57,685 nucleotides of DNA, taken from NCBI GenBank assembly GCA_964570065.1, contig CAZMVZ010000006.1, forward strand, positions 1 through 57,685, in the 5' to 3' direction. Of the stretch, positions 2,873 through 28,805 are shown piece after piece. The notes beneath the pieces were generated by a model. That model saw nothing but the letters and a program-made list of their open reading frames with translations. It did not search any database and had not been told where the DNA came from. The position numbers and the translations under genes were made by a program. The DNA is from an uncultured Candidatus Poseidoniales archaeon. Its GTDB lineage: Archaea; Thermoplasmatota; Poseidoniia; Poseidoniales; Thalassarchaeaceae. Within the stretch, counting starts at the first letter, position 1; every line of letters begins with the position of its first letter.

Positions 2873-2876
2873 ACTA

Positions 2877-4735: not shown

Positions 4736-5173
4736 ATGCGAGTTGTGATTGCTAAACCTGGTCTTGATGGGCACGATCGTGGCGCAAAGGTAATCGCCAG
4801 AGCACTCAGAGACGGTGGTCACGATGTTATCTACACTGGACTTAGAAAGACACCTTCTGACATTGTAAGGATCGTAAATGACGAAGATGCAGAAGTCCTC
4901 GGCCTCTCCACTCTTTCAGGGGCCCACGACTCCCTAATTCCGAAGATCTGCGATGGTCTGAGGGAAGAGGAACTGGGCGATGTCATAGTTTTTGCAGGTG
5001 GAATTATCCCTGATCGGGATCTGGAACTGCTCTACAATTCGGGAGTTAGGGCGGTTTTCGGACCCGGAACTCCCACTTCCGAGGTTCTGGGATTCTTGGA
5101 TGAAGCCAGACAAAGGAAAAAAGAGAATGTTCCAATCGGAGTCGGAGACGATTTGGGGTGGCACTGGAATTGA
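4736..5173 (+). CDS. methylmalonyl-CoA mutase, cobalamin-binding subunit
   Basis: [12 protein letters not shown] (DxHxxG), [19 protein letters not shown]. Confidence 0.95.
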
Positions 5174-6051: not shown

Positions 6052-6055
6052 TCTG

Positions 6056-6700
6056 ATGACAGACCAATCAACAGACGTCTTCGTCGATCATGTCGGGCAT
6101 TCAATTGGGGGGATGGGGGGGCACGCCTTCAGGCGTCTAACCCACGTATCTATGGCATCTATACCATATCTCTACTACGTGCACGGGTCGACAATTTCGT
6201 CATACTTCTCTCTACAAGCCAGGGAATTTGTCAGTGCCATATGCGTACTAATTCTTGTTACCGAGGCCTTCCGACTAAGGACTGGAATTGTGATAGTGGG
6301 GCAGAGGGAATATGAATCCAGTCAGATTTCGGCACTTGCTTGGGGCGCACTTGCCGTGGCACTCGCAATACTGATTGCTCCAGAGGGTGAAAATGGTGGT
6401 ATGGAGGCTGGCAAGTATGGGGCCCCAATAATCCTGGGAATGACTCTCGTCGACCCTGTGATGGGGGAGGTCAAGAGGGCAATGAAAGACCTCCGAGCAG
6501 CCATCATTCTTGGATTAGTAGTATCCTATGCGGTTTGGGTGGGGTGCCATTTCTGGATCGGAACAGAGTTAATCGCAGCATTGTTGCTGGCCCCGCTAAC
6601 TGTTTTGGGCGAACTTCCACCTACGAGGGCGATTGATGATAATGCCACCATGGTTCTCTTCCCCTTAGTGGGGCTAGTCCTACTTCTGCCGTTCTTGTGA
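6056..6700 (+). CDS. membrane protein, dolichol/phytol kinase-like (CTP-dependent lipid kinase family)
   Basis: RRLTH near the N-terminus, DPVMGEV, DDNAT, about 7 TM helices. Confidence 0.6.
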   Translation: MTDQSTDVFVDHVGHSIGGMGGHAFRRLTHVSMASIPYLYYVHGSTISSYFSLQAREFVSAICVLILVTEAFRLRTGIVIVGQREYESSQISALAWGALAVALAILIAPEGENGGMEAGKYGAPIILGMTLVDPVMGEVKRAMKDLRAAIILGLVVSYAVWVGCHFWIGTELIAALLLAPLTVLGELPPTRAIDDNATMVLFPLVGLVLLLPFL

Positions 6701-6745
6701 TTCCACTCCCGTCATGTTTACATCCTAATTTCATGCCCCATGTGC

Positions 6746-6877
6746 ATGGATATTGGGGATAAAGAGCCAAACTCATCAACTGAGATGTGGGAATCCCCGT
6801 TGGGACAGAGCACATACATGTTCATCTGGGCACTTGCCTCTTTGGCTTCCTTCGCAATTTTCTTCAAGTATTTCTAG
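6746..6877 (+). CDS. candidate 43-aa single-TM protein (not in ORF track)
   Basis: MDIGDKEPNSSTEMWESPLGQSTYMFIWALASLASFAIFFKYF fills the gap between genes and has a hydrophobic C-terminus. Confidence 0.35.
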   Translation: MDIGDKEPNSSTEMWESPLGQSTYMFIWALASLASFAIFFKYF

Positions 6878-7172
6878 AAATGTGGATGCTCTTCTCTACC
6901 GCGAGGAGAACAGATTTGCCAGAAGTACCGCCAGGGCCACTGTAGCCCCCAATCGCCCCGTTCGAGCGGATAACCCGGTGACACGGGATCGAGATCGGAA
7001 AGGGGTTGGACCCACAAGCATTCGCAACTGCTCTGTAAGAACCAGGATTTCCAATAGCCTCTGCTATGCCTTTGTAAGTCCTGGTTTCACCAGGTGGTAT
7101 CTTTCTGATCTCGTCCCAAACCCTCCTCTGGAAGGCCGTCCCTTGGATATCTGGAGCTACTTCTTCTCCCAT
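6864..7172 (-). CDS. ogt: methylated-DNA-protein-cysteine methyltransferase (MGMT, short form)
   Basis: FQRRVW...IPPGETRTY...RAVANACGSNP...IPCHRVI; start reassigned to MGEEVA. Confidence 0.9.
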   Translation of the reverse strand: MGEEVAPDIQGTAFQRRVWDEIRKIPPGETRTYKGIAEAIGNPGSYRAVANACGSNPFPISIPCHRVIRSNGAIGGYSGPGGTSGKSVLLAVEKSIHISRNT

Positions 7173-7435
7173 CCGTCGCCTTCCAGATCTTCCATCCCAA
7201 CAATCTCGTAGTTCGAAGGGAATAGTGCTATTGCGACACCGATTACAATGCATGCGATACCGAACCAGAAAGAACCCCTGATCATCAACTCCATCCCAAT
7301 GGCGAATAGGATCAAACCTCCTAGGTTGGATACCCAAACAAGGGTCTTGAATGTGGAAAGGGAAACCCCACTAGCCCTCTTGGTTCTGTGGGGGCCGAAT
7401 TCTGCCCCAAATCTAACTGGATCGTCATCACCCAT
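7157..7435 (-). CDS. small 2-TM membrane protein
   Basis: Two hydrophobic segments; in tandem with the ferredoxin and ogt genes. Confidence 0.65.
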   Translation of the reverse strand: MGDDDPVRFGAEFGPHRTKRASGVSLSTFKTLVWVSNLGGLILFAIGMELMIRGSFWFGIACIVIGVAIALFPSNYEIVGMEDLEGDGWEKK

Positions 7436-7441
7436 CTTACT

Positions 7442-7774
7442 TCACCTGTCTATCATGATGATCGCATCGGTCGGACACGCTAAGACGCAAATCTTGCACC
7501 CGGTGCAGGGATCCCTCAGGATCCTCGCCTTCCTGTTGACGTCCACATCCATTATGGGGCTTGCAAGGGGGGTGTCGTAGAGCTCTATTGCATCATCTTC
7601 GCATACGATTGTGCACTGGTCGCAACCGATGCATAGCTCTTCCTTTACCCAAGCTACCGTGTCCTCACCGCCCTTGAGCAAGGCCTCCTCTTCGGCCCTG
7701 ACCGAGTTTAGTTGGACCCTGATCCTGGACTGCTCTACCGCCCTCCTCTTCAGGACGTCACCAACCTTGGTCAT
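7442..7774 (-). CDS. 2x[4Fe-4S] ferredoxin with N-terminal helical extension
   Basis: CIGCDQCTIVC and CTGCKICVLACP. Confidence 0.9.
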   Translation of the reverse strand: MTKVGDVLKRRAVEQSRIRVQLNSVRAEEEALLKGGEDTVAWVKEELCIGCDQCTIVCEDDAIELYDTPLASPIMDVDVNRKARILRDPCTGCKICVLACPTDAIIMIDR

Positions 7775-7849
7775 GATATCTCCAGTTCATTCCATAGAGC
7801 CGACCCTTATCATAGTGAGTTTGATTGGTGTTCCCCCTCACCGGCTTTC

Positions 7850-8116
7850 ATGAGCGCGACTGAATCCGCATGGTGGGCCGACCCAATGGTGTGGCTAGGG
7901 CTCTTGCAGGGTGGTGCCATTTGGATAGCCATGGCAGTTTACCTGAGCGTTCCAGCGGCTTGGATTTCACTTGCCTGTGGGGGCTTGATAGGGTTCTTCC
8001 TGTACTTGGTGGCACTGGGGTACGAGGACTACAGATTCGCCAAGGCAACTGTTTGGGGAGTGTTGATCAACACGGCTCTTTCATCAGTCTCGGCTCTGCT
8101 TGCCTTCATGCAGTGA
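7850..8116 (+). CDS. small 3-TM membrane protein
   Basis: Hydrophobic ORF from MSATESAWW; start reassigned. Confidence 0.6.
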   Translation: MSATESAWWADPMVWLGLLQGGAIWIAMAVYLSVPAAWISLACGGLIGFFLYLVALGYEDYRFAKATVWGVLINTALSSVSALLAFMQ

Positions 8117-8128
8117 CTTTCTCAGTCC

Positions 8129-10945
8129 TTACCTAGCCTTGGACTCTTCAATCTGCCTGGCAAGGAAGCTGACCACGTCTAGTATCTCGAAGTCGTGTCG
8201 CGGGTCGCCCTCGAACTTCAGGCACTCGAAGTGAGCCACACACTTAGGGCAGGATGTCAGCATAATGTCGGCACCAGTGGCCCTGACTTCGTCGAACCTC
8301 TGGACTCTCAGTGCCCTGCTGTTCTCGTTGCATGACATCATGCTGGAAACCCCGCAGCAAAGTGCATCCTCACCGGTATGCTCCATCTCCACTAGGTTGA
8401 CTCCATCGACCGACCCAACCAGGTCACGCGGCTCGTCGTAGATGTTCATCTGCCTACCCAGACGACATGGGTCGTGGTAGGTCACGGTCACCTCGTCGCT
8501 GGTCTTCAACTCCATGTCGAAACCATTCTCGATTAGGAACTCGGTCGTGTGCATCACCTTCATGTCGTCTAGCTCGTAGTCCAGGGCGAATGTTCTGAAG
8601 CACTCTGCGCACGACGTGACTAGCGTCTCGATCCCGCTCTCGCCTAGCTTCTTCTGGTTGTAGCTCTTGAGCTTCTCGAAGACTTCTGTCATACCCTGCC
8701 ACTTTTGATCGTGCCCGCAGCACTTCAGGAAGTCCCTACCTAGGTATGTGACTTCCTCCCCCATCTCCTCGAAAATCGTGAACGCCGAAGTTGTCGCATC
8801 CCCTAGGTCCATGCTGCCCTTGTTGACATGGCTGAATACCATCTCTTGGTCGATGTAGTCGACGCATCCGGGGTAATATCCGATGCTGGAGTCGAGCGGG
8901 TAGTCATCCACTGGTATGAATGAGTCATCAGCATCCTCCTCTGCCTCCGCGGCAAGTACTGCCTGGAGGACCGTGTGGGGGATCTCTGTCGCCGGAGGCC
9001 CACCTACAACGAGGTTCCTCCTGATGTCGATATAGGAGTCGTAGTCAACGAGCTGTGGGCATGCGTTCGTACAGGCTGTGCAGGTCAAGCAGGAGTACAG
9101 TGGAACGCCGTCGTCTTCGTTGTTCCATGTGTTGTAGATGATGTTCAACTTGTCTCCTGCGTTGAACAGCCTGACTGGGCAAGCATCGTCGCAAAGGTCG
9201 CATCCATAGCACTTGTTCATCTCCCACTCGTAGCCTCGTGCCATGCTCCTAAGCATCACGAAGACTAGTGCACCCACTCCCAGGCATGGGATGAACATGG
9301 AGTAGATCAGTTTCGCATCCAAGCTCTTGGGATTCTTCTCGAAAGTCGGATTCGCTATTGACATCGTGGATAGCTGCTCGTCACTGAGGCTCACCTCGGA
9401 ACGGATTATCGCAGTTCCATCCTCGGCGAGGAGAAGCGGTTGGTAAGCAACCGCAGAGAAGTCGGAGATCATAGTGACGCTTTCGTTCACGCCTTCCGAC
9501 AGCGTCGTGAAAGTCACGGTGTATGAAACGCCAGAGTCCAGGTAAATCGAGCCCGAGTCACAGGTCGATCCTTCATTCATCCAGAGTGTCTCGCCGGCTT
9601 CATCGGTAAGCACAAGACTCTGTGAGTGCATCCCTGCTGCACGAACCGTGGTCCTGAAGTTGCATCCGACGTCCGTTGGCACACTCGCGACTCCCAAGTT
9701 TTCCACTTCAAATTGAATGGACTCAGAGATTTCGATTGGCGAGCCATCCTGGGGTCCTTGGTAAATTATCTCGTTAGCTCCTATGTTCCTAGAGGTTTGG
9801 ATATCCGCATGCCCATTGGCACCGCTGAAGTCCAGAATCTTTTCTCTTGTCGGCTGGAAAACTCCCCATTTCATCCAATGAGTTGCAGGTATTACGCACC
9901 ATTCGGCATGCTCAGTACCCTCTTCCATTGTGTCCCATATTGCTAGTGTGCTAGTCTGTTCGTAAGGTATGCATTCATCACCCCACTCTTCCCATACTGG
10001 GCCTCCCTCTGAATGAATCAGCGTATCTCCCGGCTGGCCTCTAATTCCATCCAATTCGACTAACTTTGCATCATACTGGTATTCCCAGAAACCCATCGTC
10101 CCCAGACCTCGCTGATTCCAAAAGCCGCCCTCGTACACGGGCCATGTCACTGTGCACAATAGGACGGTAGCGACCAGAGATCCTACTGCTACCTGTCGAC
10201 CCAGAATTGGAGTCAGCCTGGACCCCATGGGTCCGATCAGGAACTTCCTCACTGAGAAGTAAAGAACCGTGAAGATGAAGACGCCCGTGAGGATCCAAGG
10301 TATTGCATTGAAGACCTCCGCAGTCCAAGGCGCCTGAGTTCCGCAATTGAATCCGCCATGAGCGGTAGACCAACAATAGTCGGTCCGATTCTTCGAATAC
10401 ATCTCGAGAAAGATGTTGATCGAGAATACTGAGATGAACCAGACGTGCGCGAGATAAACCGCCCCAGCCGTAGCGAACCATGGGTCCTCCACCCCCCTTT
10501 TCTCCCTCTTTCCAATTATGAATGGTGGAAGTGCTAGGATTCCGACCGGCAGTCCCGTGATCATGGCTCCCCAGACACCAGCATTCCAGGAGACAATAGG
10601 TTGTCCGAAGAATTCACCTATTGGTCCGGCTGGTATGTCGAATTGGGGCAGGTACTCTCCCCACCTGAGATACCCGTAGGAGAACAAGACATACCAATCG
10701 GGGAAGACGAAACCAGCCTGAGCGTATGGATCAGCAGCATTGTGCAAGGGAGGGGGGATTATCCAAGAGTAGAATGCGATTACCATCACAATGGCTGCGA
10801 AGATAATGGTGTCCCTCAGGACCTCAGTGGGCCAGAAAGGATGTCCAGTGTGCTCCCTCTTCCGCTCTTCTTCCGCACCCAGCAATTGCTCCTTCTCACT
10901 GACGTAGGTATCCGCAATCCTCCCAAATCTCTCCATCATTCCCAT
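8129..10945 (-). CDS. cytochrome b6f subunit IV-like domain fused to an extracytoplasmic domain and an HdrC/HdrD-like Fe-S (CCG) oxidoreductase
   Basis: FWPTEV, ADPY...FPDWY (PEWY-like Qo motif); CYGCDLCDDACP and CLTCTACTNACP; YYPGC..CCG..SCAEC and YHDPC..CCG..SCPKC. Confidence 0.88.
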   Translation of the reverse strand: MGMMERFGRIADTYVSEKEQLLGAEEERKREHTGHPFWPTEVLRDTIIFAAIVMVIAFYSWIIPPPLHNAADPYAQAGFVFPDWYVLFSYGYLRWGEYLPQFDIPAGPIGEFFGQPIVSWNAGVWGAMITGLPVGILALPPFIIGKREKRGVEDPWFATAGAVYLAHVWFISVFSINIFLEMYSKNRTDYCWSTAHGGFNCGTQAPWTAEVFNAIPWILTGVFIFTVLYFSVRKFLIGPMGSRLTPILGRQVAVGSLVATVLLCTVTWPVYEGGFWNQRGLGTMGFWEYQYDAKLVELDGIRGQPGDTLIHSEGGPVWEEWGDECIPYEQTSTLAIWDTMEEGTEHAEWCVIPATHWMKWGVFQPTREKILDFSGANGHADIQTSRNIGANEIIYQGPQDGSPIEISESIQFEVENLGVASVPTDVGCNFRTTVRAAGMHSQSLVLTDEAGETLWMNEGSTCDSGSIYLDSGVSYTVTFTTLSEGVNESVTMISDFSAVAYQPLLLAEDGTAIIRSEVSLSDEQLSTMSIANPTFEKNPKSLDAKLIYSMFIPCLGVGALVFVMLRSMARGYEWEMNKCYGCDLCDDACPVRLFNAGDKLNIIYNTWNNEDDGVPLYSCLTCTACTNACPQLVDYDSYIDIRRNLVVGGPPATEIPHTVLQAVLAAEAEEDADDSFIPVDDYPLDSSIGYYPGCVDYIDQEMVFSHVNKGSMDLGDATTSAFTIFEEMGEEVTYLGRDFLKCCGHDQKWQGMTEVFEKLKSYNQKKLGESGIETLVTSCAECFRTFALDYELDDMKVMHTTEFLIENGFDMELKTSDEVTVTYHDPCRLGRQMNIYDEPRDLVGSVDGVNLVEMEHTGEDALCCGVSSMMSCNENSRALRVQRFDEVRATGADIMLTSCPKCVAHFECLKFEGDPRHDFEILDVVSFLARQIEESKAR

Positions 10946-16593: not shown

Positions 16594-16911
16594 ATGCCGA
16601 AGCCGAAAAAGGCCGCTAGGGGAAAACACCGATGGATTGGTTTTAGGATTGATCATACTTATACTAGAGAAGAATTGAAAAGCTCACTGAAAGTCAATCT
16701 TAAGGGTAATGAATGGCGATTATTCGATATTCTAGAGACTCAGGAAAGCACTCTTGCGATTCTCAAAACACCCTTAGATAACTTCCAACAAATTACTCAA
16801 CAAATAAATAATTCAAAGGGTATGGAGACTCTAACCAGTTCCGGGAAGATAAGATTGGTCAGGAAGCGTCTAAACGCAACTCTTGGGGATGATCCACTCA
16901 ATACCGTCTAA
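16594..16911 (+). CDS. RNase P protein component Pop5/Rpp14-like
   Basis: RGKHRWIGF N-terminus and TLTSSGKIRLVRKRL C-terminus. Confidence 0.65.
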   Translation: MPKPKKAARGKHRWIGFRIDHTYTREELKSSLKVNLKGNEWRLFDILETQESTLAILKTPLDNFQQITQQINNSKGMETLTSSGKIRLVRKRLNATLGDDPLNTV

Positions 16912-18219
16912 GTCTTGGAACCCTTCCTTATCCACTATTCCAACCAACTCCAACTCTCCTGAATTTTTCAGGCCAGTGGGCCTATACAACTTGTTACCAT
17001 GAGTTGTCAGCATCCCTCTTGAAAGCAATCTAGAAAGGCCCATCCATGATAATTGAGGGAGAAAATCAATTTCCGTGGATGCAATCATTTTCTTGGCCTC
17101 GAAGATTGAGGATATCCCCCTGTCTATTCTGCGAAAAACCTCTGACGAATCAACATCGCCCAGGGTCTCGTCCCAGCCCGCGCCTTCAACTTCTCCCACT
17201 ACGAAACCAGTCCTGTTGGCACCTACCCCTACTCTGATAGTGCTATTGTTGGAAGACTCAACAAGGACTCCGCCAATCTTTACCCCATTTTCATTGACAA
17301 TATCATTTGGCCATTTCATATTAGCACCCAAAACTCTTGATACAATAGCACCGATGCTTGTCTGCACAAGTCCCGGCGAGAACCTATCCAGTAATTCGGC
17401 GTCCAAACTCCACGTTGCAAACAATCCTCCTTCATCGGAAATCCAGTCCGAACCTCTCCTCCCTCTCCCATTGGTCTGCTTGCTCGAAAGAATTCTCTGC
17501 CAACCTTTCCGAGGAAGCCTCTCTGCCTCATCCATGGTTGATTTGCATGAATCCATCATTGCCGCTTCAACTCCAGATCCAGTTCGCCAGAAACCGATAA
17601 TTTCCACCTTCTCGGAACCATATCTTTCCATACTGAGTGAGCGCCACGACCATCCACTTTTTTCCCAGTCCCGAACTCTGCTACTTCCCTCTGGCTCTGT
17701 CCTCATAACCAAGATTACCATGACATTTTCAGTCAAAGTGGTGCTAATATTCTCCAAGGCATGCAGGAGAACCCGCCCCCATCCACCCCGAGAGATATCG
17801 GTCAGCGCTGCCTCTTCGATCTTCTCTAGAATACTTGGATCGTCCTCATCTTCGTCCAGATAGGGAAGATTCCAAACAATCAATTCCGTATCTTCTTGAA
17901 TTGGCAAATCGACCCCAATCTCGGCTTCGATAATTCTAGCCCTCCCAGATAGTCCATTAGCATCCAAGTTTCCCCTTGCGCAGGCTACAGCATATGGATT
18001 CACATCACAGGCAGTTACTTCCCAACCAAGGGTCGTGAGAACCATGGAAACCAAACCAGATCCGCATCCTATCTCCAGGACCTTGGCACCCGACTTTGGT
18101 GACAGCTTCGAGATAACACGACAAAGCATCATTGTGTCCTCTCTGGGGGGATAAACGGTAGGTGGGACGAATACTTCCCATTCACCAACGTCGTCAATGC
18201 GGAACCTCCCAGCTTCCAT
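16870..18219 (-). CDS. HemK2/PrmC-like methyltransferase fused to biotin-protein ligase (BirA catalytic domain)
   Basis: VYPPREDT, LEIGCGSG, WNLPY, then QTNGRGRRG, KWPND, KIGGVLVE, GVGAN; start uncertain (18219 or slightly upstream). Confidence 0.85.
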   Translation of the reverse strand: MEAGRFRIDDVGEWEVFVPPTVYPPREDTMMLCRVISKLSPKSGAKVLEIGCGSGLVSMVLTTLGWEVTACDVNPYAVACARGNLDANGLSGRARIIEAEIGVDLPIQEDTELIVWNLPYLDEDEDDPSILEKIEEAALTDISRGGWGRVLLHALENISTTLTENVMVILVMRTEPEGSSRVRDWEKSGWSWRSLSMERYGSEKVEIIGFWRTGSGVEAAMMDSCKSTMDEAERLPRKGWQRILSSKQTNGRGRRGSDWISDEGGLFATWSLDAELLDRFSPGLVQTSIGAIVSRVLGANMKWPNDIVNENGVKIGGVLVESSNNSTIRVGVGANRTGFVVGEVEGAGWDETLGDVDSSEVFRRIDRGISSIFEAKKMIASTEIDFLPQLSWMGLSRLLSRGMLTTHGNKLYRPTGLKNSGELELVGIVDKEGFQDLDGIEWIIPKSCV

Positions 18220-18415
18220 CAGAATTTTCACTTGCTTTCGAGACAAAATTGTTGCGCCCCGCGACCACCACCGCTCAACAACCTTTATGTCGTCGTCCAA
18301 CGAAGGATGGGCAGTACCGGCTTCCTCCGGTACCTCTCGCAGATTTGCGGGAGCGATGCTGTGCGCAAGCCTTTTGAACCCCCCTAGGGTCGGAGGATAG
18401 CCCAGCATCAGCCAT

Positions 18416-18489
18416 GGGCCTGTAGCTTAGTCAGGTAGAGCGCCGGGCTTTTAACCCGGTGGCCGGGGGTTCGAATCCCCTCAGGCCCG
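18416..18489 (+). tRNA. tRNA-Lys(UUU)
   Basis: Acceptor stem GGGCCTG/CAGGCCC, anticodon arm CCGGG-CTTTTAA-CCCGG, T-loop GTTCGAATC. Confidence 0.97.
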
Positions 18490-18537
18490 CCTGATAGGAC
18501 TGCAGGCCAACGGTTTTTTACGGGCGGGGGTAGCAAC

Positions 18538-19125
18538 ATGGCCGTAAAGAGCTCAACTAAAAAGAGATTGATAGAGCTGGGAATTCCAGAAGACCACGCA
18601 CACAAATTAGCCGATGACGCAAATCTGGATGCAATTAAGAGAATGTCACGCGAGCAAGTCGCGAAGAAGGTCGGCATAGAGGAGGGCGAATCTGAGCTCG
18701 ATCATATCATGACTGTAATCAGTGAACACGTGGGCTCTAGGAAGAGGAGCAAGAGTAATCGAATCACAATCTCGAGGAAGGCTCTATTGGATGAAGATAT
18801 TCCCACTGGCGACTATAGATTCAATGTCCTCAATCACTTCCTAGTCCCTCATCATGAATTGGTCCCCATAGACTCTGAGGCAGAGGTTCTGGAACCATGG
18901 GGTCTTACTACCGACGATGCCTTCGGCACCGGTAGACTCGCCAAGGAACTCTTGCCCAAGATTCTGATCACAGATCCTGCAATCCAGGTGATAAAGGAGA
19001 TGGAAGAATCAGAGAATGATGAATTGCCAGCCGGTTGGCTTGCAAACAGGGTTGTCAAGGTAATACGTTACAGTCGTTCTGCTGGAAATTCTGTGGCCTT
19101 TCGCTTAATCGTGGAGAGCGCATAA
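18538..19125 (+). CDS. rpoH: RNA polymerase subunit H (Rpo5) with ~90-aa N-terminal extension
   Basis: FNVLNHFLVPHHEL...LPKILITDPA...VVKVIRYSRSAG...FRLIV; first gene of the rpo operon. Confidence 0.92.
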   Translation: MAVKSSTKKRLIELGIPEDHAHKLADDANLDAIKRMSREQVAKKVGIEEGESELDHIMTVISEHVGSRKRSKSNRITISRKALLDEDIPTGDYRFNVLNHFLVPHHELVPIDSEAEVLEPWGLTTDDAFGTGRLAKELLPKILITDPAIQVIKEMEESENDELPAGWLANRVVKVIRYSRSAGNSVAFRLIVESA

Positions 19126-19142
19126 ATTTGGAGATGTAAAAA

Positions 19143-22100
19143 ATGAAGGAGATTGTTGAGAGCTATTTCAAACAGAGAAGCCTAGTGAACCATCAGCTTG
19201 CTTCGTACAATGACTGTATACCAGTCGGTGACGGAAAGGAAAGCAGGATGGAGAAGATTGTTAGAAACATCAGGATTGGAAGCGATGAGCCCTTTGAAGA
19301 TGATGAGGGCGGCCTCGTAAAGCTAGACCTTCTCGATAAGGAAATTATTGTCCGACTGAAGAATCTTCGATTAGGCAGGCCCACGATAAAGGAGGCTAAC
19401 GGTGCAGAACACCATGCAACTCCGATGGAGTGCAGGCTTCGGAAGCTAACATACTTCTCACCAGTCTACTTGGACTTCAAGATCTTCCGTGACGATTTGC
19501 CCCCTTCTCCGGGGAGTGAAATGGGATTCCAAGAAGAGACGAGTGTACACATTGGAAACCTCCCCATTATGGTTCGCTCCGCACGATGCAACCTGAATCA
19601 TAATCACATAGACGAGAATAGACGCCTATCTCCTGATACTTCGGGTGAAGATTCAGAGAGATACACACAACTTCTGAGAAAGTCGGGAGAGGACCCTCTT
19701 GATCCCGGTGGATATTTCATTATCAACGGAACTGAAAGGGTGCTAATCTCAATGGAGGACCTTGCTCCAAATAGGGTTACAGTTGAGAAGAACAAGAAGT
19801 ATGCTCACGAAACTCAGGTCGCGAAGATTTTCTCTCAAAAGGACGGAGTCAGAAAACCACTCAATGTAGAGAAGAGGAGAGATGGGATGCTAATGGTAAA
19901 GATTCCAAGCGCCGGGACCACACCAATCCCGCTTGTCCTGTTGATGAGGGCTCTTGGAGTGGAAAATGACAGGGAGATTTTCGCATCCATAGCCGGCCCC
20001 CCCGAAGCAATGAAGTTCACAGTGGCCAATCTAAACGATCTCAGAGATAACGAGGAATACGGAGTTGATACTTCTGAAGAGGCCCTGGCCTGGCTCGAGA
20101 AGAAGTTTGCAGCAGGGCAGCAGAAAGAGTACCGTGAGTCGCGTATCCAGAATCTTCTTGATAACGAACTTCTTCCTCATCTTGGGTCCAACATAGACAA
20201 TAGGGAGAAGAAAGCAATTTTCCTCGGAAGAATTGCGCGGCAAGTTCTCGAGATGGCAATTATGGACAAGGATCCGAACGACAAGGACCACTATGCAAAC
20301 AAGCGTGTGAGGTTGGCTGGAGACCTGATAGAGGACCTGTTCAGGGTTAGTCTACAACAACTCGCGAGAGATTTGAAGTATCAGTTAGAGAGGCACCACA
20401 ACAGGAAGAGAGAACTCCGAATCTCCTCGTGCCTCAGGCCAGACGTCCTGACAACGAAGATTATGCATGCTCTGGCTACAGGAAACTGGGTCGGCGGCAG
20501 ATCCGGAGTCAGCCAACTTCTCGACAGAACAACGTATCTTTCAGCACTCTCCCACATGAGGAGAGTTACGAGCCCACTCGTCAGGAGCCAACCCCACTTC
20601 GAGGCAAGGGACCTGCACCCAACACAATGGGGGAGGCTATGCCCCAACGAAACCCCGGAAGGGCAGAATTGCGGACTCGTGAAGAATGCAGCCCAAATGA
20701 TCGACGTCTCAGAGGAAGTCCCAGAGAACGACGTGAAGGCTTTGCTTAAGGAAGCCGGCGTCAACGATAACCCAGATGGATGGGCCGACGGTTCACGAAT
20801 CCACGTAAATGGCGATATCTTCGGTCTTCACAAGAGGCCACAAAAGCTTGTTAGTCAATTCAAGAGGAGGAGGCGTTCTGGCAGAATCAGGCCAGAGGTA
20901 AGCATTAGACACGATCTAGAGAATCGCGACGTTTACATCAATACAGACAGAGGGAGAATGCTCCGCCCACTTCTGATTATCGATCACGGGAGTCTTCAGA
21001 TTACAAAGATGCACCTAGAAGGCCTCAACTCGGGAGAGATAACATTCTCAGATCTTGTTTCGGGAGGAGTGGTCGAGTGGGTGGATGCAGAGGAAGAAGA
21101 AGACTTGCTAATTGCACCAAGGCCATTCGATCTACCAGCACACTCACCGAAGAACAACCGTCCAATCAACCCTGCAAAGGTGGAGTGGACCAACTTGGGC
21201 GAGCATGGAATTTCTCATGCCAAGATTTCTGCTGAGGTAATGATGCCCAATGGAGAAGCTAAGGTTGAGAAATTCAAGGTTCCACTAAATTACTACCAAG
21301 ACAATATTGACGTGCTGAAGAGAAAGGAGAAGAAGGACAACACAGTTCTTGTTTTCACGCACGTAGAGATAGACCCACAGCTGATAATGGGTGTCTGCGC
21401 CTCTTTGGTGCCTTACCCAGAGCACAACTCAACTCCTAGAGTTACAGGCGGGACCGCTATGGTCAAGCAAAGCCTCGGTGTTGCCAGTGCAAACTTCAGG
21501 CTCAGGCCAGATACCAGAGCCCATGTGATGCATTACCCTCAGCGTTCAATCGTAGGAACCAGGGCAATGACGTCCACAAAGTTCGACCAGAGGCCCGGTG
21601 GACAGAATTTCGTCGTAGCAATTGTCAGCCATCATGGTTACAATATGCAAGATGCGGTGATAATGAACAGGGCATCCGTTGAGAGGGCACTCGGTAGATC
21701 AGCATTCATCAGGACATACAATGCGGAAAACAAGAGATTCCCAGGCGGCCAAGAAGAGAGAATCGAAGTTCCCGGAACTGGCCTAGACGAAATAAAGGGG
21801 CTCAAATCATGGGATGCTTATTCACACTTGGAAAGGGATGGCCTTCCCGTACCCGAGGTCGAACTAACCAGCCAAGAGGGAGGTAGGGGCATACTCGTCG
21901 GTAAGACAAGCCCACCTAGATTCCTCGAAGAGTCCCATGGTGCATTCCTACAAGCCCAAGAGAGGCGCGAATCATCAATGATGGTGAGGCATGGAGAGCA
22001 GGGATGGGTCGACAACATCTTCGTCACCGAGTCACTTGACTCAGGCAGACTAGTGAGGATAACACTACGCACTAACAAGATACCAGAGCTCGGCGATAAG

Positions 22101-22835
22101 TTCGCTAGCCGTCACGGGCAGAAGGGGATTATCGGAAGGTTGGTTGAGCAGGAGGATATGCCATTTACTGAAGATGGAGTAATCCCTGACCTTCTGATTA
22201 ACCCGCACGCCATCCCTTCTAGGATGACTGTTGCCCACGTCCTGGAAATGATTGGCGGCAAGGTCGGCTCAATGGAGGGGAGGAGAATTGATGGAACTGC
22301 ATTCACAGGCGAGAAGGAGGAGTCACTTCGTTCAGGGCTACTCAGGAATGGCCTTAGGCATACAGGAAGAGAGTCAATGATCAACGGCGAGACTGGCGAG
22401 AGCTTCCCGGTCGAAACTTTCGTTGGAGTGATTTACTACCAGAGGCTACATCACTTGGTCAGCAGCAAACTACACGCACGCAGTAGGGGTAGAGTCCAGA
22501 TCCTCACAAGGCAGCCAACCGAGGGGCGCGCTCGACAAGGCGGTCTAAGGTTCGGTGAGATGGAGAGAGACTGCCTCATTTCCCATGGGGCATCGATGGT
22601 AATCAAGGATAGATTGCTGGATGAGTCCGATGGTTGGAATCTGATGGTCTGCAACACCCCCCGTTGTGGGCATATTGCATACTACGACTGGAAGCGAAGA
22701 ACCACCATCTGCCCAGTATGCGGTGATAGATCAGATGTCCATTCGGTCCAAACATCTTACGCTTTCAAGCTACTCCTGGATGAGATGAAGAGTCTTGGAG
22801 TGGCAATGAGACTAGAACTGGAGGATAGAAGATGA
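19143..22835 (+). CDS. rpoB: RNA polymerase subunit B (Rpo2, unsplit)
   Basis: GGYFIINGTERV, ETPEGQNCGLVKN, GDKFASRHGQKG, GGLRFGEMERD. Confidence 0.99.
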   Translation: MKEIVESYFKQRSLVNHQLASYNDCIPVGDGKESRMEKIVRNIRIGSDEPFEDDEGGLVKLDLLDKEIIVRLKNLRLGRPTIKEANGAEHHATPMECRLRKLTYFSPVYLDFKIFRDDLPPSPGSEMGFQEETSVHIGNLPIMVRSARCNLNHNHIDENRRLSPDTSGEDSERYTQLLRKSGEDPLDPGGYFIINGTERVLISMEDLAPNRVTVEKNKKYAHETQVAKIFSQKDGVRKPLNVEKRRDGMLMVKIPSAGTTPIPLVLLMRALGVENDREIFASIAGPPEAMKFTVANLNDLRDNEEYGVDTSEEALAWLEKKFAAGQQKEYRESRIQNLLDNELLPHLGSNIDNREKKAIFLGRIARQVLEMAIMDKDPNDKDHYANKRVRLAGDLIEDLFRVSLQQLARDLKYQLERHHNRKRELRISSCLRPDVLTTKIMHALATGNWVGGRSGVSQLLDRTTYLSALSHMRRVTSPLVRSQPHFEARDLHPTQWGRLCPNETPEGQNCGLVKNAAQMIDVSEEVPENDVKALLKEAGVNDNPDGWADGSRIHVNGDIFGLHKRPQKLVSQFKRRRRSGRIRPEVSIRHDLENRDVYINTDRGRMLRPLLIIDHGSLQITKMHLEGLNSGEITFSDLVSGGVVEWVDAEEEEDLLIAPRPFDLPAHSPKNNRPINPAKVEWTNLGEHGISHAKISAEVMMPNGEAKVEKFKVPLNYYQDNIDVLKRKEKKDNTVLVFTHVEIDPQLIMGVCASLVPYPEHNSTPRVTGGTAMVKQSLGVASANFRLRPDTRAHVMHYPQRSIVGTRAMTSTKFDQRPGGQNFVVAIVSHHGYNMQDAVIMNRASVERALGRSAFIRTYNAENKRFPGGQEERIEVPGTGLDEIKGLKSWDAYSHLERDGLPVPEVELTSQEGGRGILVGKTSPPRFLEESHGAFLQAQERRESSMMVRHGEQGWVDNIFVTESLDSGRLVRITLRTNKIPELGDKFASRHGQKGIIGRLVEQEDMPFTEDGVIPDLLINPHAIPSRMTVAHVLEMIGGKVGSMEGRRIDGTAFTGEKEESLRSGLLRNGLRHTGRESMINGETGESFPVETFVGVIYYQRLHHLVSSKLHARSRGRVQILTRQPTEGRARQGGLRFGEMERDCLISHGASMVIKDRLLDESDGWNLMVCNTPRCGHIAYYDWKRRTTICPVCGDRSDVHSVQTSYAFKLLLDEMKSLGVAMRLELEDRR

Positions 22836-25800
22836 GTGCCCGAGATGCAGCCAAGATACCAAAGAGGATTGACTCTATTAGATTCACATTGATGGATCCC
22901 AACGAAATAAGGAAGATGTCTTCCGTCGAGGTCAAGACTGCAGATACCTACAAGGACGATGGACACGCATTCAAGCAGGGACTAATGGATCCCAAGATGG
23001 GAGTAATTGATCCTGGGATCAGGTGTGAAACCTGCGGCAACAAGCATGAGGAGTGCCCAAGCCACTTCGGACACATTGCCCTCGAACTCCCTGTAATGCA
23101 TATCGGTTTTACTGGGTTGATCAAGACATGCCTGAAGACTACCTGCAACTCTTGCAGCAAGGCTCTACTGCTTGATGCACCAGAGTCCCATCCAACCGAT
23201 CCCGAGAAGTCTGAACAGGACTACTACAGGGATCGTGTAAATGACATCATACTGAAGCATGGAGTTGGAGGAAGGGAGTTCAAGAAGATCATCAAGGATA
23301 TTGAAAATCTCTGTGCTGGTGCAAAGAGGGCAATCTGCATGCATTGCGGTGCTGAACAAGGCAAGATTGTCCTGGACAAACCTACGACCTTCAAAGAAAA
23401 GAAGGCTGACAAGGGAGAGCACAAGCTGAATGCCCGAGATATCAGGGAATGGCTTGAGAAAATTCCCGATGAGCATCTAATTTTCGTTGGAATGGAGAGC
23501 GATGTCAGCAGGCCAGAATGGACGATAATGAAGGTCCTTCCCGTCCCACCAATAACCGTCAGGCCATCAATCACACTAGAGAGTGGCGACAGATCAGAAG
23601 ACGACTTGACGCACAAGTTGGTAGATGTTCTTAGGATTAATCAGCGACTTAGGGAGAATCGAGATTCAGGTGCTCCACAACTCATCGTGGAAGATCTTTG
23701 GGAACTTCTCCAATATCACTGTACTACATACTTCGACAATCAAACTAGTGGAATTCCTCCAGCAAGGCATCGTTCTGGACGCCCACTCAAGACTCTCTCC
23801 CAGAGACTAAAGGGCAAAGAAGGAAGATTCAGAAGCAACCTGTCTGGTAAAAGGGTGAATTTCTGCGCAAGAACAGTAATCAGCCCTGATCCGAATCTTG
23901 GAATAAATGAAGTCGGCGTGCCTGTGAAGACCGCAAAGGAACTCACCGTCCCCATCAGGGCAACGAGCAGAAACCGCGAACAACTGAGGCAGATGATCCT
24001 ACGTGGCCCAGATGTCCACCCGGGTGTGAACTATATCATCAGAGGCGATAGATTCAGAGTGAGGATAACTGATAGGACCAAGTACATCTGGGCCGGCTTC
24101 AGATGCTTGAACCCCGAATGCCATTCGGGAAGCGAGGAAGAACCCTACACTGGGTACAGGCCTGACTTGAATGAGGTGCTACCAGCACCCAACTTCCTTC
24201 CTGGACTTGTTCTGAGAGAGCAGATGCGGAGAGATCCGATGACCGATGCACTAGTTCCCGAATGGAGTGTCAATCTCGATGGGACACTATCGAATCTCAG
24301 GGGCGAGGGGGGCGATGGTAAGCCATTGGCTGAAGATGACCCCGATGCAGCAATTCACTATAGGTGGAAGTGGGAGGTAAATAACCCCGAAGAATATCTT
24401 CCAGAGCACCTAGAGGTCAAGTGCCCGCACTGTGGTAGTCCAGAGATTGAGGACGAGCATGGAAATGTCTACCCCACGGACACAGAAGACAGATTAAGCA
24501 CATATGACAGAGAAGGCAACCCTCGCCCGGGTGTCGTCGTTGAAAGGCATCTGATTGACGGTGACGTAACCATCTTCAATCGTCAACCATCCCTACACAG
24601 GATGTCGATGCTTGTCCACGAAATAAGAGTCATGGATGGGAAGACGTTCAGGTTCAATCTAGCAGATTGCACTCCCTACAATGCAGATTTCGACGGCGAC
24701 GAAATGAATCTCCACGTAATCCAGAGCGAGGAAGCCAGAGCTGAGGCTAGAATACTGATGCGGGTCCAAGAGCACATTATCTCCCCAAGGTACGGAGGTA
24801 GTGTAATCGGGGGAATACATGACCACATCACTGGTGCATACCTCCTCACCCATGGGGAGGCATTCCTGCCCATGCATGTGGCAATGGACGTATTGAGCTC
24901 AATTGGTTGGGAGGGAGACCTGCCCGAAACAGTCGAGAGAAACGGACAGACTGGATTCCTCGGAAATCAGATATTCAGCCTATTGGTCCGCGGAGGCTTC
25001 AGCCTCAACTTCAAGAATAGAGCCGGCGAAGACGTTCACGTGACTAAAGGTGATGTTTCCGGATCAATTGACAAGAGAGGAATCGGTGCCGAGGACGGAC
25101 GCCTTCTAGATGCAGTAGTCCAGACTCACGGAACTGATCTGGGAGCAGATTTCATCAACAAGATGACGAAGATGACTATCGCAATTTGCACAGCAATGGG
25201 ATTCACTACTGGAATTGACGACGAGGACCTCCCTCCAGAGGCCAAGGATGAGATTGCTAGAATCAACTCTCAGGCCAGCTCCGACGTAGATGCAGAATTG
25301 GAGAAATTCGGAAAGGATGGTAGGAAATACGAGGCTCGCCCGGGTCGAACCCCTCATGAGACCCTTGAAGAGAATATCCTCACTATCCTGGATGCCGCCA
25401 AGGCCGAGACCGGTAATGTGGCAAAGAAAGAACTGGGCGATGACAACTCAGCGGTACTGATGGCTACTTCCGGTGCTCGAGGCTCTATGGATAACCTAGC
25501 GATGATGGCCGGATCCATCGGTCAGCCGAAAGTCAGAGGTAAGAGGCTCGAGAGAGGGTACCAAGACCGCGTTCTATCTCACTTCCCAAGGAAGGTAAAG
25601 GGTTCCAAGGAGAAGGGCTTCGTATCTTCTTCCTTCAAGAGGGGACTAGAGCCTACAGAGTTCTTCATGCTGTCCGTATCGGGTAGGGAGTCCCTGGTCG
25701 ATACAGCCGTGAGGACGAGCAAATCCGGATACATGCAAAGGCGCCTGATTAATGCAATGGACGATCTAAAGGTTGCAAACGATAAGATGGCCTCAGTGAG

Positions 25801-25927
25801 GAACACTGCTAACAGAATCATCCAATTCGAATATGGCGAGGATGGCACAGACCCAGCCCGAAGTAGAAAGGGAAGCCCTTTCGACGTAGACCAAGTTCTG
25901 AATGACGCATTGGGGGGTGCTAACTGA
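22832..25927 (+). CDS. rpoA1: RNA polymerase subunit A' (Rpo1N)
   Basis: Clamp Zn sites, [15 protein letters not shown], catalytic [22 protein letters not shown]. Confidence 0.99.
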
Positions 25928-27507
25928 TGGTAGTTAAGAGTGCAACAAAGAAGAAATTGATGGATCTCGGCATCGAGGAGGAGTATGCACACAAGCTAGC
26001 CGACGACAGAAAGTGGGACGACGTTAAGGGACTCTCTCCCGGGCAAATTGCTCAGATCTGCGGGATAGACTCGGGAACGTCTCAGAGAATCCACGATGTA
26101 ATGGCAAGCTCCATAAAATCATCCAGATCCTCTACTGCAAGTTCTGAGAAGACCATTGTAAGGCGTCGAACCGTCTCTAGACGAAGAAGAACTACGCGCT
26201 CTCTACCGTTGCAGGATTACGACTATGATTCGAAAATGGCACAACTTATCCGTGACATTGACCACGAAGATGAGATGTATATCCAACTTAACAAAGCCGC
26301 AACAAAAACGGGTTCGAACATGACTCCAAGGATGCTTGATCAACTAGTAAAGGGCCTCCAAAGCAGGGGAGAGAAGAAATTGACCGATGCCAAAGCAAAG
26401 AAGATCATCAACTCTGCAAACCATTTCTACATTGATTCTAAGGCAGTTCCTCACGAAGCCGTAGGCATCACTACCGCCCAGTCAATTGGCGAACCTGGAA
26501 CGCAGATGACCATGCGTACTTTCCACTATGCCGGAGTGGCAACTGTAAACGTCACACAGGGTCTTCCAAGGATTATCGAGATCGTCGATGCAAGAAAGGT
26601 ACCCAAGACCCCAACCATGATCATTTACATGGATGAGAAGAATTCCAAAAACAAGCCTCTAAGGACTAATGAGAAACTAGTCAGGGATTTAGCAGCTGCA
26701 ATCGAGACCACTACTGCAATGGATATTGCCACTATCGACGTTGACGTCGCCCAGCGGAACATCGTCCTCCAATTGAACAATCGCAATATGAGGCTGAAGA
26801 AGATGAATGGGGCTGAGGTGAGGGACAAACTTTCCCGCGCACTCCGACTCTACGTCCAAGCCGATAACGACGATCGTCCAAAGTCACTCAGGATCATTCC
26901 TGGCGTAACAAAGGAAGAGGATCTGGCAGATCTAGCATCCGATCCTCCAACATACACCGCTCTTCTCCAACTTGAAGACAAGATCAAGAAACTCCGTTTG
27001 AAGGGTCTGCCAGGAATCAGTAGGGCAACTGTCCAAGGGCCAATGACTGACACGGGCGAGTACTACATTTCCACCATTGGGTCAAACCTTTCGAAGGTCA
27101 GCGAGTTCGATGGAGTAGATAGATCCAGAACTTACACCAACAATATCAATGAGATCCACGACTACCTAGGGATCGAAGCAGCCCGTCAAGCAATTATTAA
27201 CGAAATGTGGGATACCTTGGAAGGAGCTGGTCTTGATGTTGACGTTAGGCACCTCCTCATGGTTTCAGACGTAATGACAACCGGAGGGGAAGTTAGGGCC
27301 ATAGGTCGGCACGGAGTCAGCGGGACCAAGCACTCAATTCTTGCCAGATCGGCTTTCGAAGTCACTGTGACTCACCTATTGAAGGCTGGAGTAATTGGTG
27401 AAAGGGACATGCTATCTGGTGTGACTGAGAACATCATTGTCGGACAGCCAGTAGCTTTGGGTACGGGTAGTGTCGAGTTATTCTACATACCCGAGGAAAC
27501 TAATTGA
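25927..27507 (+). CDS. rpoA2: RNA polymerase subunit A'' (Rpo1C) with N-terminal extension
   Basis: [38 protein letters not shown]. Confidence 0.98.
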
Positions 27508-27516
27508 GGTGAAAGA

Positions 27517-27813
27517 ATGGACATCGCTAGACAATTGAAGCAAGGAATAAACACTGGTAACATTGTTTTCGGCCAAAGGCAAACATCATCTGAGTGCACC
27601 AGGGGCGGGGCCAAAATGGTACTCTTTGCCGCTAACTGCCCAGAGTCATTTATCGATGAATTGAGAAATTCCCACCCATCCGTGCCTATGCATCAGGTTA
27701 CCATGGTGAATAGGCAACTTGGTGCAGCATGCGGAAAACCATTCCCAGTAAGCTCTCTTTGCATCATCGATGCAGGACAGAGCGATTTACTTCAGCTCGC
27801 TCCTAACCTTTGA
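27517..27813 (+). CDS. rpl30e: 50S ribosomal protein L30e
   Basis: TGNIVFG, ANCP, LGAACGKPF, IIDAGQSDLL; GAGGTG Shine-Dalgarno upstream; canonical position after rpoA2. Confidence 0.93.
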   Translation: MDIARQLKQGINTGNIVFGQRQTSSECTRGGAKMVLFAANCPESFIDELRNSHPSVPMHQVTMVNRQLGAACGKPFPVSSLCIIDAGQSDLLQLAPNL

Positions 27814-28805
27814 TGGAACAATCGGCCCCAAAAACAATTTTTTTGGGTTTTCTTCAAAGTCAGGCCCACTGGCCAATCTCCATGGAAGCGGCTTTGCGAG
27901 ATCTAATCGGAATAAAATCTGTAAATCTCCGAACCCATAATGCGGGCCTTTCTCCTCATGGATTCACCTGCCTTGGAGTGGCGACATCAATTCCAGAACT
28001 AGAAATCCACTCAAACGAGGTTTTCATCTGGCATGCCCGAGCGGACATTTTGCCGATAACTAAGAGCGAGATCATCAGGTTTGGACTGGACGCACCTAGT
28101 GGATTGAACCTAATTCTCAGTGAAAGGCCGGTTCAATCAGAATGCCACTCAGTAGATACTTTCGATTTCAGAATTCTCGAACCAGAGGACATTTCATCGT
28201 GGGTCGGTCAGGCGGTTCTTTCTGGTGACTTGATTGCAACTGCTAAGGATGAAGATGATCGAGCAAGAATGGAGCATTATGGCCATGAAAGCCCAATTGA
28301 GAAAATGTTAGTTCTGAAACCAGATATCGAGGTCAAATCTTGGTCCGTCCAAAGAGGGATGGAGGGAGTCTCGTCTACGCCTGTCCTTATCTCTGCACGG
28401 CTATGGACGGTATTGGGGGAATTGCAAGGGCCCAATGGTGAAAATGAATCCGGTGAATGGACGATTCTAGAGGACCCATGGTCAAAAACCGTGACTCTAC
28501 TAAATGACATCCAGAATCTTCAGCATGCTCCCATTCTGAGGACGATTGAACCGCAAGATCTCGATTGGCTAACTCTGGATAGGATAAACGAAGAATTGGC
28601 CAAGGTCATAGAGGAAAGACGGCGGGGGAATTCAGAAAAGAGTAGTGTTTCAGGAACCGTCCGGAGCATGCTTCTACAGAAATGGCCTTTGGATTCGGAA
28701 AGAGCAATCGTCAGCCATAGCAAGATAATGATCCCCGGATGGGTAATGCATTTAGAAACTGAAAAGATTCTGCACGGCAGAAACGGTCGTCTATACGACT
28801 ACTAA
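27810..28805 (+). CDS. hypothetical protein
   Basis: 331-aa ORF overlapping the rpl30e stop; no motif recognised; start uncertain. Confidence 0.65.
   Translation: MMEQSAPKTIFLGFLQSQAHWPISMEAALRDLIGIKSVNLRTHNAGLSPHGFTCLGVATSIPELEIHSNEVFIWHARADILPITKSEIIRFGLDAPSGLNLILSERPVQSECHSVDTFDFRILEPEDISSWVGQAVLSGDLIATAKDEDDRARMEHYGHESPIEKMLVLKPDIEVKSWSVQRGMEGVSSTPVLISARLWTVLGELQGPNGENESGEWTILEDPWSKTVTLLNDIQNLQHAPILRTIEPQDLDWLTLDRINEELAKVIEERRRGNSEKSSVSGTVRSMLLQKWPLDSERAIVSHSKIMIPGWVMHLETEKILHGRNGRLYDY

Follow-up and report, generated by a model that had tools for sequence, protein, structure and literature searches.

A shared N-terminal domain on two RNA polymerase subunits

We analyzed a stretch of 57,685 nucleotides (contig CAZMVZ010000006.1, assembly GCA_964570065.1; here called the window) from an uncultured archaeon of the order Poseidoniales, formerly called Marine Group II, which the source labels of near-identical proteins assign to the family Thalassarchaeaceae, and focused on its RNA polymerase genes rpoH and rpoA'', which encode the subunits RpoH (Rpo5) and RpoA'' (Rpo1C). 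The genes follow one another in the order tRNA-Lys, rpoH, rpoB, rpoA', rpoA'', rpl30e, and a 331-amino-acid (aa) open reading frame (ORF) without a Pfam family, with rpoH directly upstream of rpoB. The lengths and coordinates of the two subunits, taken from the ORFs and their translations, are given in Table 1. RpoH is subunit H by membership in Pfam Rpb5_C (PF01191; 44.5 bits against a cut-off of 23.5, on aa 95 to 191), and Foldseek found that its core resembles subunit H of archaeal polymerases (e.g., 7oqy_H; E value, 2e-5). The NCBIfam equivalog NF007129 scored 47.6 on RpoH, under its cut-off of 83, and the RpoH core is therefore divergent. RpoA'' is a member of TIGR02389 (421.5 bits against a cut-off of 420.65, on aa 146 to 519), and Pfam Rpb1_5 covers its aa 141 to 470.

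We found that both subunits begin with the same small domain, which we call the head. The original prediction, made from the sequence alone, had claimed such a shared domain with 26 of 47 residues identical. We reproduced this gapless count, and a longer gapless comparison gave 29 of 56. BLASTP of the two N termini returned the same 29/56 identities with 41/56 positives and no gaps (E value, 4e-15). The DNA of the two heads agrees at 106 of 168 bases but at only 25 of the 56 third codon positions, which argues that the likeness has been kept at the protein level. The source genome, which is 84% complete, contains exactly two copies of the head, one on RpoH and one on RpoA''.

An Arg/Ser-rich linker had been described behind each head, and our composition counts agree with this. 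The 32 residues of the RpoH linker include 5 Arg, 3 Lys, and 4 Ser, and the 39 residues of the RpoA'' linker include 9 Arg, 2 Lys, 10 Ser, and 5 Thr. The median net charge of the linker is +3 in 22 homologues of RpoH and +7 (range, +4 to +11) in 19 homologues of RpoA''. Behind its linker, RpoA'' has an acidic segment with a median net charge of −4, in which Y98 and K103 are kept in at least 90% of sequences.

TABLE 1 Positions in the window of the two head-bearing subunit genes, their parts, and the adjacent tRNA gene
Feature	Position	Strand	Evidence or remark
rpoH (Rpo5)	18538-19125	+	195 aa versus the usual ~80; Pfam Rpb5_C on C-terminal part only
RpoH N-terminal five-helix domain (predicted), aa 1-62	18538-18723	+	AlphaFold2, dN/dS, RNA-library contigs
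RpoH basic linker, aa 63-94	18724-18819	+	pLDDT 49-57; conserved R/K-S-R...RITISRKA stretch
RpoH assembly (Rpb5_C) core, aa 95-195	18820-19125	+	Pfam; Foldseek
rpoA'' (Rpo1C)	25927-27507	+	526 aa versus ~390; TIGR02389
RpoA'' N-terminal five-helix domain (predicted), aa 1-58, paralogue of the RpoH domain	25927-26100	+	BLASTP
RpoA'' Arg/Ser-rich linker, aa 59-97	26101-26217	+	Variable sequence, basic charge
RpoA'' extra acidic segment, aa 98-140, before canonical start	26218-26346	+	Precedes TIGR02389 match
tRNA-Lys(UUU)	18416-18491	+	ARAGORN; 46 bases upstream of rpoH; context only

The extensions are translated parts of both subunits

The stop codon of rpoA' and the ATG of rpoA'' overlap (TGATG), and a GGGGGTG site lies ahead of this ATG. 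In 19 of 19 related loci, we found the homologous ATG with a GGAGGTG-like site and mostly with the same stop overlap. In 41 related loci, the position of the rpoH start is conserved as a start codon (ATG, GTG, or TTG), preceded by a ribosome-binding site of the GGGGG type, and in several of these loci in-frame stops lie 1 to 5 codons upstream of it. Contigs from RNA libraries of two studies span the tRNA region, the rpoH start, and the head into the core (e.g., 18540 to 19061 and 18350 to 18685); as contigs, they show cover and neither a transcription start nor an expression level.

We compared the ratio of nonsynonymous to synonymous substitution rates (dN/dS) among 18 RpoH genes within the genus. 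The head and the core gave the same ratio, 0.039, and the linker gave 0.019; dS was usable in only 21 to 45 of the 153 pairs per region. This within-genus estimate was used because order-wide dS is saturated at ~2, which makes the order-wide dN/dS unreliable. Order-wide dN of the RpoH head was 0.42, compared with 0.35 in its core, and the corresponding values for RpoA'' were 0.27 and 0.24; the linkers reached 0.78 to 1.02, the higher value being that of RpoA''. We found, then, that the head evolves about as slowly as the catalytic cores. Across 19 genomes from three families, 20 columns in aa 1 to 49 of RpoA'' are invariant, and the N-terminal residues and H22 of the head are near-invariant.

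An artefact, in which the true starts would lie downstream and the extensions would be untranslated, is extremely unlikely. We found nothing in its favor; public gene calls sometimes label head-bearing proteins hypothetical. Against it stand the ribosome-binding site ahead of the rpoA'' ATG in all 19 loci and the overlap of this ATG, in most of them, with the end of rpoA', the kept position of the rpoH start codon with stops close upstream, synonymous change with amino acid conservation, and a confident AlphaFold2 fold of the head (see below). We concluded that the rpoH and rpoA'' starts are settled and that the extensions are real, translated parts of both subunits.

The pair of heads is specific to Poseidoniales

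With the RpoH head as the query, 39 of 41 relatives matched, nearly all of them twice, in frames of ~200 to 250 aa and ~520 to 530 aa. We then used a class-wide sample, in which at least one copy of the head was present in 63 of 65 genomes of family f1, 2 of 2 of family f2, and 90 of 90 of family f3; nearly all of these had both copies. The same query matched none of the 43 genomes of sister family f4 and neither of the 2 genomes of sister family f5, and the RpoH frames in f4 and f5 are 81 to 121 aa long. Profile A1 matched 119 of 121 Poseidoniales genomes, nearly all with exactly two matches. Phylum-wide, RpoH open frames measure 76 to 181 aa outside Poseidoniales and 141 to 252 aa inside, the frame of 141 aa lying at a contig start. 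We concluded that the paired arrangement is specific to the order Poseidoniales, where it is found in three families.

The RpoH copies and the RpoA'' copies fall on either side of one branch (support, 100/99) in a tree built from 41 heads. This indicates one old duplication with no later homogenization.

As a side observation, contig L206, which is filed under a Deltaproteobacteria single-cell assembly, carries a Poseidoniales-type rpoA'' with a head. That assembly therefore probably contains foreign DNA.

The RpoA'' head predates Poseidoniales

Outside Poseidoniales, the profile gave one weak true match, located right where RpoA'' begins in genome G266 of family f6. hhalign to this RpoA'' head gave a probability of 77% and an E value of 2e-5, and the RpoH of the same genome is a canonical 80-aa protein. 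Weak matches in G311 and G338 lie within a primase and a glycosyltransferase, and we rejected them as spurious.

In the majority of 151 Thermoplasmatota genomes, the RpoA'' open frame is longer than the model, which has ~367 positions, and we inspected 13 Thermoplasmatota RpoA'' N termini. RpoA'' begins with a homologous head, followed by a Lys-rich linker, in f4, f6 (three genomes), f11, f20, f25, and f39. These outsider heads follow the pattern M-x-K-x-D-T-x-x-A-L-x-K/R-R-G-[VIL]-S/P-x-x-x-A-x-K-x-A...L-x-x-L-K-K. Aligned by hhalign, the Poseidoniales heads (A4) and the outsider heads (A7) matched over 49 columns with a probability of 94.7% and an E value of 5.9e-8. In f39, two canonical HHH_5 modules stand behind the head (Pfam E value, 1e-19; 71 bits against a cut-off of 27). 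RpoA'' has only a Lys-rich tail in f16, and in f30 and f35 it has a different domain of ~130 aa without a Pfam match.

The RpoH and RpoA'' heads of Poseidoniales form a clade (0.98) against the outsider heads, with a mean identity of 41% between the two Poseidoniales types and of 21 to 23% to the outsiders. Since the outsiders have heads on RpoA'' together with a short RpoH, the RpoH copy is a duplication that took place in the Poseidoniales stem. By the same comparison of homologues, the RpoA'' head came before the order.

We also noted that the N-terminal extensions of RpoA'' vary by lineage, as seen at L224 to L226 (G267, G292, and G296), L227 (G234), L222 (G041), and L228 (G295). In the sister group, the extension is ~440 aa long and starts with the head.

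The head is predicted to form a five-helix bundle

AlphaFold2 modeled the head from the 41 aligned heads with helices at residues 6 to 13, 18 to 25, 30 to 34, 38 to 45, and 52 to 65 (predicted local distance difference test [pLDDT], 80). In a model of full-length RpoH, the linker was of low confidence (Table 1). The five-helix topology of the head model fits a double helix-hairpin-helix, or (HhH)2, domain. VIA-align matched the head to the (HhH)2 domains of FANCM (9hjo_A; Z score, 7.3), XPF (2kn7; Z score, 7.2), and NusA (1u9l_B; Z score, 6.3), and topoisomerase V and RAD51 were further structural matches of this group (Z scores, 7.3 to 6.3). The N-lobe of RAD51/RadA compared with the head gave a template modeling (TM) score of ~0.6. 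The first hairpin of the head is HhH-like, reading L-G-[IV] and then A-H-x-L-A, and its G15 is kept in at least 90% of the 41 sequences.

Other searches with the head returned little. Foldseek found nothing at an E value of ≤0.001, with best TM scores of 0.59 to 0.69, and the viral structures of BFVD likewise held no match at an E value of ≤0.001. A search of PDB by sequence with profile A1 gave designed repeat proteins as its best matches (E values, 0.011 and 0.077) and nothing meaningful. Pfam SAM_1 matched 2 of 41 heads, with a best E value of 0.029, which falls short of membership.

The head resembles (HhH)2 and SAM domains as a predicted five-helix bundle of the same size (Z scores, 7.7 to 7.2; TM score, ~0.6). 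It differs from them in that it has no sequence membership and no conserved second-hairpin glycine and is not basic. We concluded that the head is a new sequence family that belongs to no Pfam or PDB family by sequence and that it has a predicted SAM-like/(HhH)2-like fold.

The heads may hold DNA at the downstream jaw

According to passages in PMC2675907 and PMC3479171, the DNA entry side of archaeal enzymes is lined by Rpo5 together with the jaw of Rpo1C, and archaeal Rpo5 is without the eukaryotic jaw; the groove left in this way is filled by Rpo13 in Sulfolobales. We infer both the position of the heads on the Poseidoniales enzyme, which we took from structures solved for other archaea, and their contact with DNA. 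The head (~60 aa, with its predicted SAM-like/(HhH)2-like five-helix fold) and a flexible basic linker of 30 to 40 residues make up a portable module. This module had been fused to the N terminus of Rpo1C in an early Thermoplasmatota lineage and was duplicated onto the N terminus of Rpo5 in the Poseidoniales ancestor. Rpo5 and Rpo1C form the lower jaw on the DNA entry side, so that the enzyme would have two tethered arms there. The basic linkers and the Lys-rich first helix of the head would hold the entering duplex DNA without sequence preference, and the arms would take the place of Rpo13 in Sulfolobales or of the Rpb5 jaw domain in eukaryotes.

We tentatively favor this reading of the heads as tethered arms on the downstream jaw that would make nonspecific contact with DNA, and we put it at a little under an even chance. 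It is suggested by the finding of the head on a basic linker at the N termini of just Rpo5 and Rpo1C, by the canonical HhH modules at the equivalent spot of RpoA'' in f39, and by the bare Lys-rich tails at that spot in f16. The linker charges of +3 and +7 and the presence of DNA-binding (HhH)2 domains among the best fold matches also point to DNA.

A different ligand was considered, in that the linkers and heads might bind nascent RNA or another polyanion or might aid polymerase assembly. Low-complexity linkers that are Arg/Ser rich or Lys rich bind any polyanion, and the acidic-repeat and KH-neighboring HhH domains of NusA are among the fold matches. Against this, RNA exits the polymerase elsewhere than where DNA enters. 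Duplex DNA is also what the canonical HHH_5 modules of f39 point to, and the jaw of Rpo5 and Rpo1C is placed at the DNA entry side in passages of PMC2675907 and PMC3479171. We regard binding of RNA or another such ligand as improbable.

The RpoH and RpoA'' heads might also bind each other. Such putative pairing would strap together the N termini of Rpo5 and Rpo1C and stabilize or regulate the jaw. Almost all Poseidoniales genomes retain both of the diverged paralogues, which have thus lasted throughout the history of the order, and the fold class includes obligate heterodimers, namely, Scm/Sfmbt SAM, FANCM/FAAP24, and XPF/ERCC1. Other Thermoplasmatota, however, have the RpoA'' copy only, so that the head functions there with no counterpart on Rpo5. 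We think it quite unlikely that pairing of the heads is their role.

Several observations weigh against DNA contact by the heads. The highest VIA-align scores came from SAM domains, which bind proteins (5j8y_D, with a Z score of 7.7, a root mean square deviation of 1.8, and 62 aligned residues; another, with a Z score of 7.5), and VIA-align rates a Z score of <8 as middling, which applies to all matches of the head. Pfam HHH_5 (PF14520; cut-off, 27 bits) scored RpoA'' at 10.9 bits (E value, 0.69) and matched 4 of 41 heads, with a best E value of 0.034. In hhalign comparisons, the heads reached 23.6% with the genome's own HHH_5 match, which is probably RadA, and 1.2% with the canonical HhH of f39. 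In both subunits, the second hairpin has a variable residue in place of a fixed glycine (the G46 region), and the folded head has a median net charge of −1 in both copies. Conservation of the 11 residues at the extreme N terminus is much stricter than generic binding to a backbone would require. Finally, the head occurs on proteins outside the polymerase (see below), and most of these have no basic linker, a pattern that a specific partner would explain no less well.

The same head begins proteins unrelated to RNA polymerase

When 1.84 billion representative proteins were searched with the profile, only 204 matched at an E value of ≤0.001, and a second search added more. We examined 251 head-bearing proteins, of which 92 were RpoA'', 14 were RpoH, 48 were too short to tell, and 97 had an unrelated continuation. 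Single linkage placed the 97 non-polymerase proteins in 34 tail families; the largest has 36 members and 12 have at least two members, and some of the singleton families may be faulty (frameshifted or chimeric) gene calls. The head stands at residue 1 in nearly all of these proteins. By score, 81 of the 97 heads are of the RpoA'' type, 9 are of the RpoH type, and 7 are ambiguous.

Neither Pfam nor PHROGs assigned the tails to a family, except for an AAA_15/AAA_21 ATPase in P0212 and weak matches in a few others. When we compared 12 of the non-polymerase proteins with PHROGs, P0212 matched generic ATPase families and P0175 and P0263 gave weak matches. In the ESM Atlas, the tail of P0199 led, at values of <0.9, to PEP-utilizing enzymes and a viral cluster, and P0279 was without a usable match. 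The largest non-polymerase family (alignment A6: P0204, P0215, P0275 to P0280, P0221, and P0322) consists of proteins of ~210 to 229 aa. Its members have an internal FRGLGSLF motif and end in GLGSLFG, which looks like a short peptide-binding motif used twice.

We searched cellular genomes for such proteins. In G026 and G092, two closed, single-contig Poseidoniales genomes, the head occurs on the two polymerase subunits only, and in a scan of 185,579 species genomes with family A6, the best 80 loci were all rpoA''. A metagenome scan with family A5 gave 80 loci, 79 of which were polymerase genes or were cut off, and only L047 was informative. L047 (positions 1 to 10855) is a 10.9-kb marine metagenome contig that encodes a head-bearing protein of 334 aa at positions 3570 to 4574. 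Its neighbors are a primase-polymerase, a TFB homologue that is 50 to 55% identical to Poseidoniales TFB, and a Holliday-junction-resolvase-like nuclease; the remaining genes are ORFans on one strand. The GC content of L047 is 43%, versus 49% in the window. L047 is a linear fragment without terminal repeats. Other members of head families, P0215 and P0279, lie on contigs of 93 and 122 kb. Scans of the IMG/VR viral contigs with A1, P0199, P0211, A5, and P0279 found no relative, and neither P0199 nor P0279 had a tblastn match among 50,697 phage records. We concluded that the non-polymerase head proteins likely come from mobile elements. A passage in PMC5434244 reports a "DNA-dependent RNA polymerase A" gene in the magrovirus unresolved group D.

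These proteins suggest another role, in which a SAM-type head would act as a docking tag for one specific partner, whether a host factor, the polymerase, or another head. Viral or plasmid proteins would have captured the head repeatedly to reach this partner and thus the host transcription machinery. The presence of the head, nearly always at residue 1, on 97 of the 251 proteins and 34 tail families argues for this, as do the prevalence of the RpoA'' type among the captured heads, the absence of such proteins from cell genomes (119 matching Poseidoniales genomes and the best 80 loci of the species-genome scan), the mobile-element-like context of L047, and the large contigs that encode family members. 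The top fold match, 5j8y_D, is a heterodimerizing SAM domain, and a specific partner would also fit the near-invariant N-terminal residues and H22, the acidic-to-neutral head, and the reuse of the head without linkers. Against this, L047 is the single genomic context, with the fragmentary ends noted above; the IMG/VR and phage searches gave no relative; and faulty gene calls may account for some of the single-member families. We consider docking on a specific partner possible, if on the unlikely side.

A more specific form of this idea seems doubtful to us. In it, the head would be an address label of the Poseidoniales transcription machinery, displayed twice on the jaw of the polymerase, and viruses or plasmids would have fused copies of it, mostly of the RpoA'' type, to at least 30 families of effectors. 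If this is true, the effectors would bind the polymerase, or else the partner of the heads, and take over host transcription. The head on orphan proteins outside cell genomes may also serve as a sequence handle for finding mobile elements of uncultured Poseidoniales, together with any anti-transcription factors that these elements may have.

Comparison with other polymerase additions

The reading that we favor, in which the heads would be arms that hold downstream DNA, has counterparts in three known systems. According to passages in PMC2675907 and PMC3479171, Rpo13 binds double-stranded DNA without sequence preference and occurs in one lineage only. Rpo13 is a lineage-restricted addition at the DNA entry side, where the heads would also lie, and the comparison is functional only. 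Rpo13 is a separate helix-turn-helix subunit, whereas the heads are fused to Rpo5 and Rpo1C, are present in two copies, and have a predicted five-helix SAM-like fold.

The eukaryotic Rpb5 jaw, like the RpoH head, is an N-terminal addition to the Rpo5/Rpb5 assembly domain, and it guides downstream DNA. In contrast to the Rpb5 jaw, which packs rigidly, the RpoH head is separated from its core by a low-confidence linker of ~30 residues. We found no homology between the two: Pfam at an E value of ≤1 found only Rpb5_C in RpoH, and in Foldseek only ~96 columns of the RpoH core aligned to Rpb5 chains, with a target-normalized TM score of ~0.3.

The C-terminal domains of the bacterial alpha subunits are two small helical HhH-type domains on flexible linkers that contact DNA and regulators. 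The heads resemble them in that each enzyme has two small, tethered helical domains, those of the heads having a predicted SAM-like/(HhH)2-like fold. The bacterial domains, however, are identical copies on two alpha subunits, at the C terminus and on the upstream face, whereas the heads are diverged paralogues at the N termini of two different subunits and would lie at the downstream jaw. The alpha C-terminal domain was absent from the Pfam, Foldseek, and VIA-align matches listed for the head, and absence from these lists does not amount to exclusion.

A new accessory domain in archaeal RNA polymerase

Archaeal RNA polymerase is treated as a fixed enzyme of 10 to 13 subunits. Our searches of open-access text on Poseidoniales and Thermoplasmatota turned up no account of a domain at the N terminus of Rpo5 or of Rpo1C. 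Passages of a survey of small subunits of archaea from 2026 (PMC13257274) and of one of polymerase insertions from 2024 (PMC11515920) make no mention of such a domain. The abstract of PMC3906176 and a passage in PMC3479171 state that Rpo5/RpoH has no N-terminal extension in any archaeon, and RpoH of Poseidoniales, with its head, is thus an exception. We concluded that the pair of heads constitutes lineage-specific accessory domains of RNA polymerase, the RpoH copy being new.

The original prediction can be refined accordingly. Its helix-hairpin-helix-like domain stands as far as the modeled five-helix SAM-like/HhH-like fold goes, and the canonical HhH family was not recovered by sequence. The proposed lineage-specific architecture applies to the paired arrangement and to the RpoH copy, which occur only in Poseidoniales; it does not extend to the RpoA'' head, which at least six other Thermoplasmatota families share. 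The head is a feature of both polymerase subunits, as proposed, and is not restricted to them, since 97 of the 251 head proteins are non-polymerase proteins. The prediction had allowed for starts that lie downstream, for extensions absent in relatives, and for a domain already described in Thermoplasmatota RNA polymerase. We found instead that the start codons, ribosome-binding sites, and dN/dS fix the starts upstream, that relatives keep the extensions, and that the open-access literature has no such description.

Some of the most abundant archaea of the surface ocean, and in part their whole phylum, would have tethered accessory domains at the DNA entry jaw. The heads might be a third independent answer to the holding of downstream DNA, besides Rpo13 and the Rpb5 jaw.

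Other features of the operon and its flanks

The RpoH core is itself unusual, with the 73-position Pfam model stretched over 97 residues. RpoH proteins in alignment A2 score 25 to 56 bits with this model, versus 63 to 121 bits in full-length matches of other Thermoplasmatota, and RpoH cores in f3 have further insertions of ~9 and ~10 residues.

RpoA' (positions 22832 to 25927, + strand) is 1,031 aa long, and an insertion at approximately aa 400 to 565 splits its Pfam Rpb1_2 match in two. The insertion contains CxxC pairs, with weak zinc-ribbon matches at aa 525 to 543.

The 331-aa ORF (positions 27810 to 28805, + strand) follows rpl30e at the end of the polymerase operon, a position occupied by NusA in other archaea. 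Homologues are syntenic behind rpoA''/rpl30e in 14 of 14 f1 genomes, 2 of 2 f2 genomes, and 1 of 14 f3 genomes. The protein evolves fast, with 47% identity within the genus, and its homologues in G042 and G062 have one in-frame TGA each.

On the other side of the operon, a 512-aa protein (positions 16870 to 18408, − strand) combines a small methyltransferase domain (MTS/PrmA-like; aa 99 to 226) with a biotin/lipoate protein ligase domain (aa 307 to 392).

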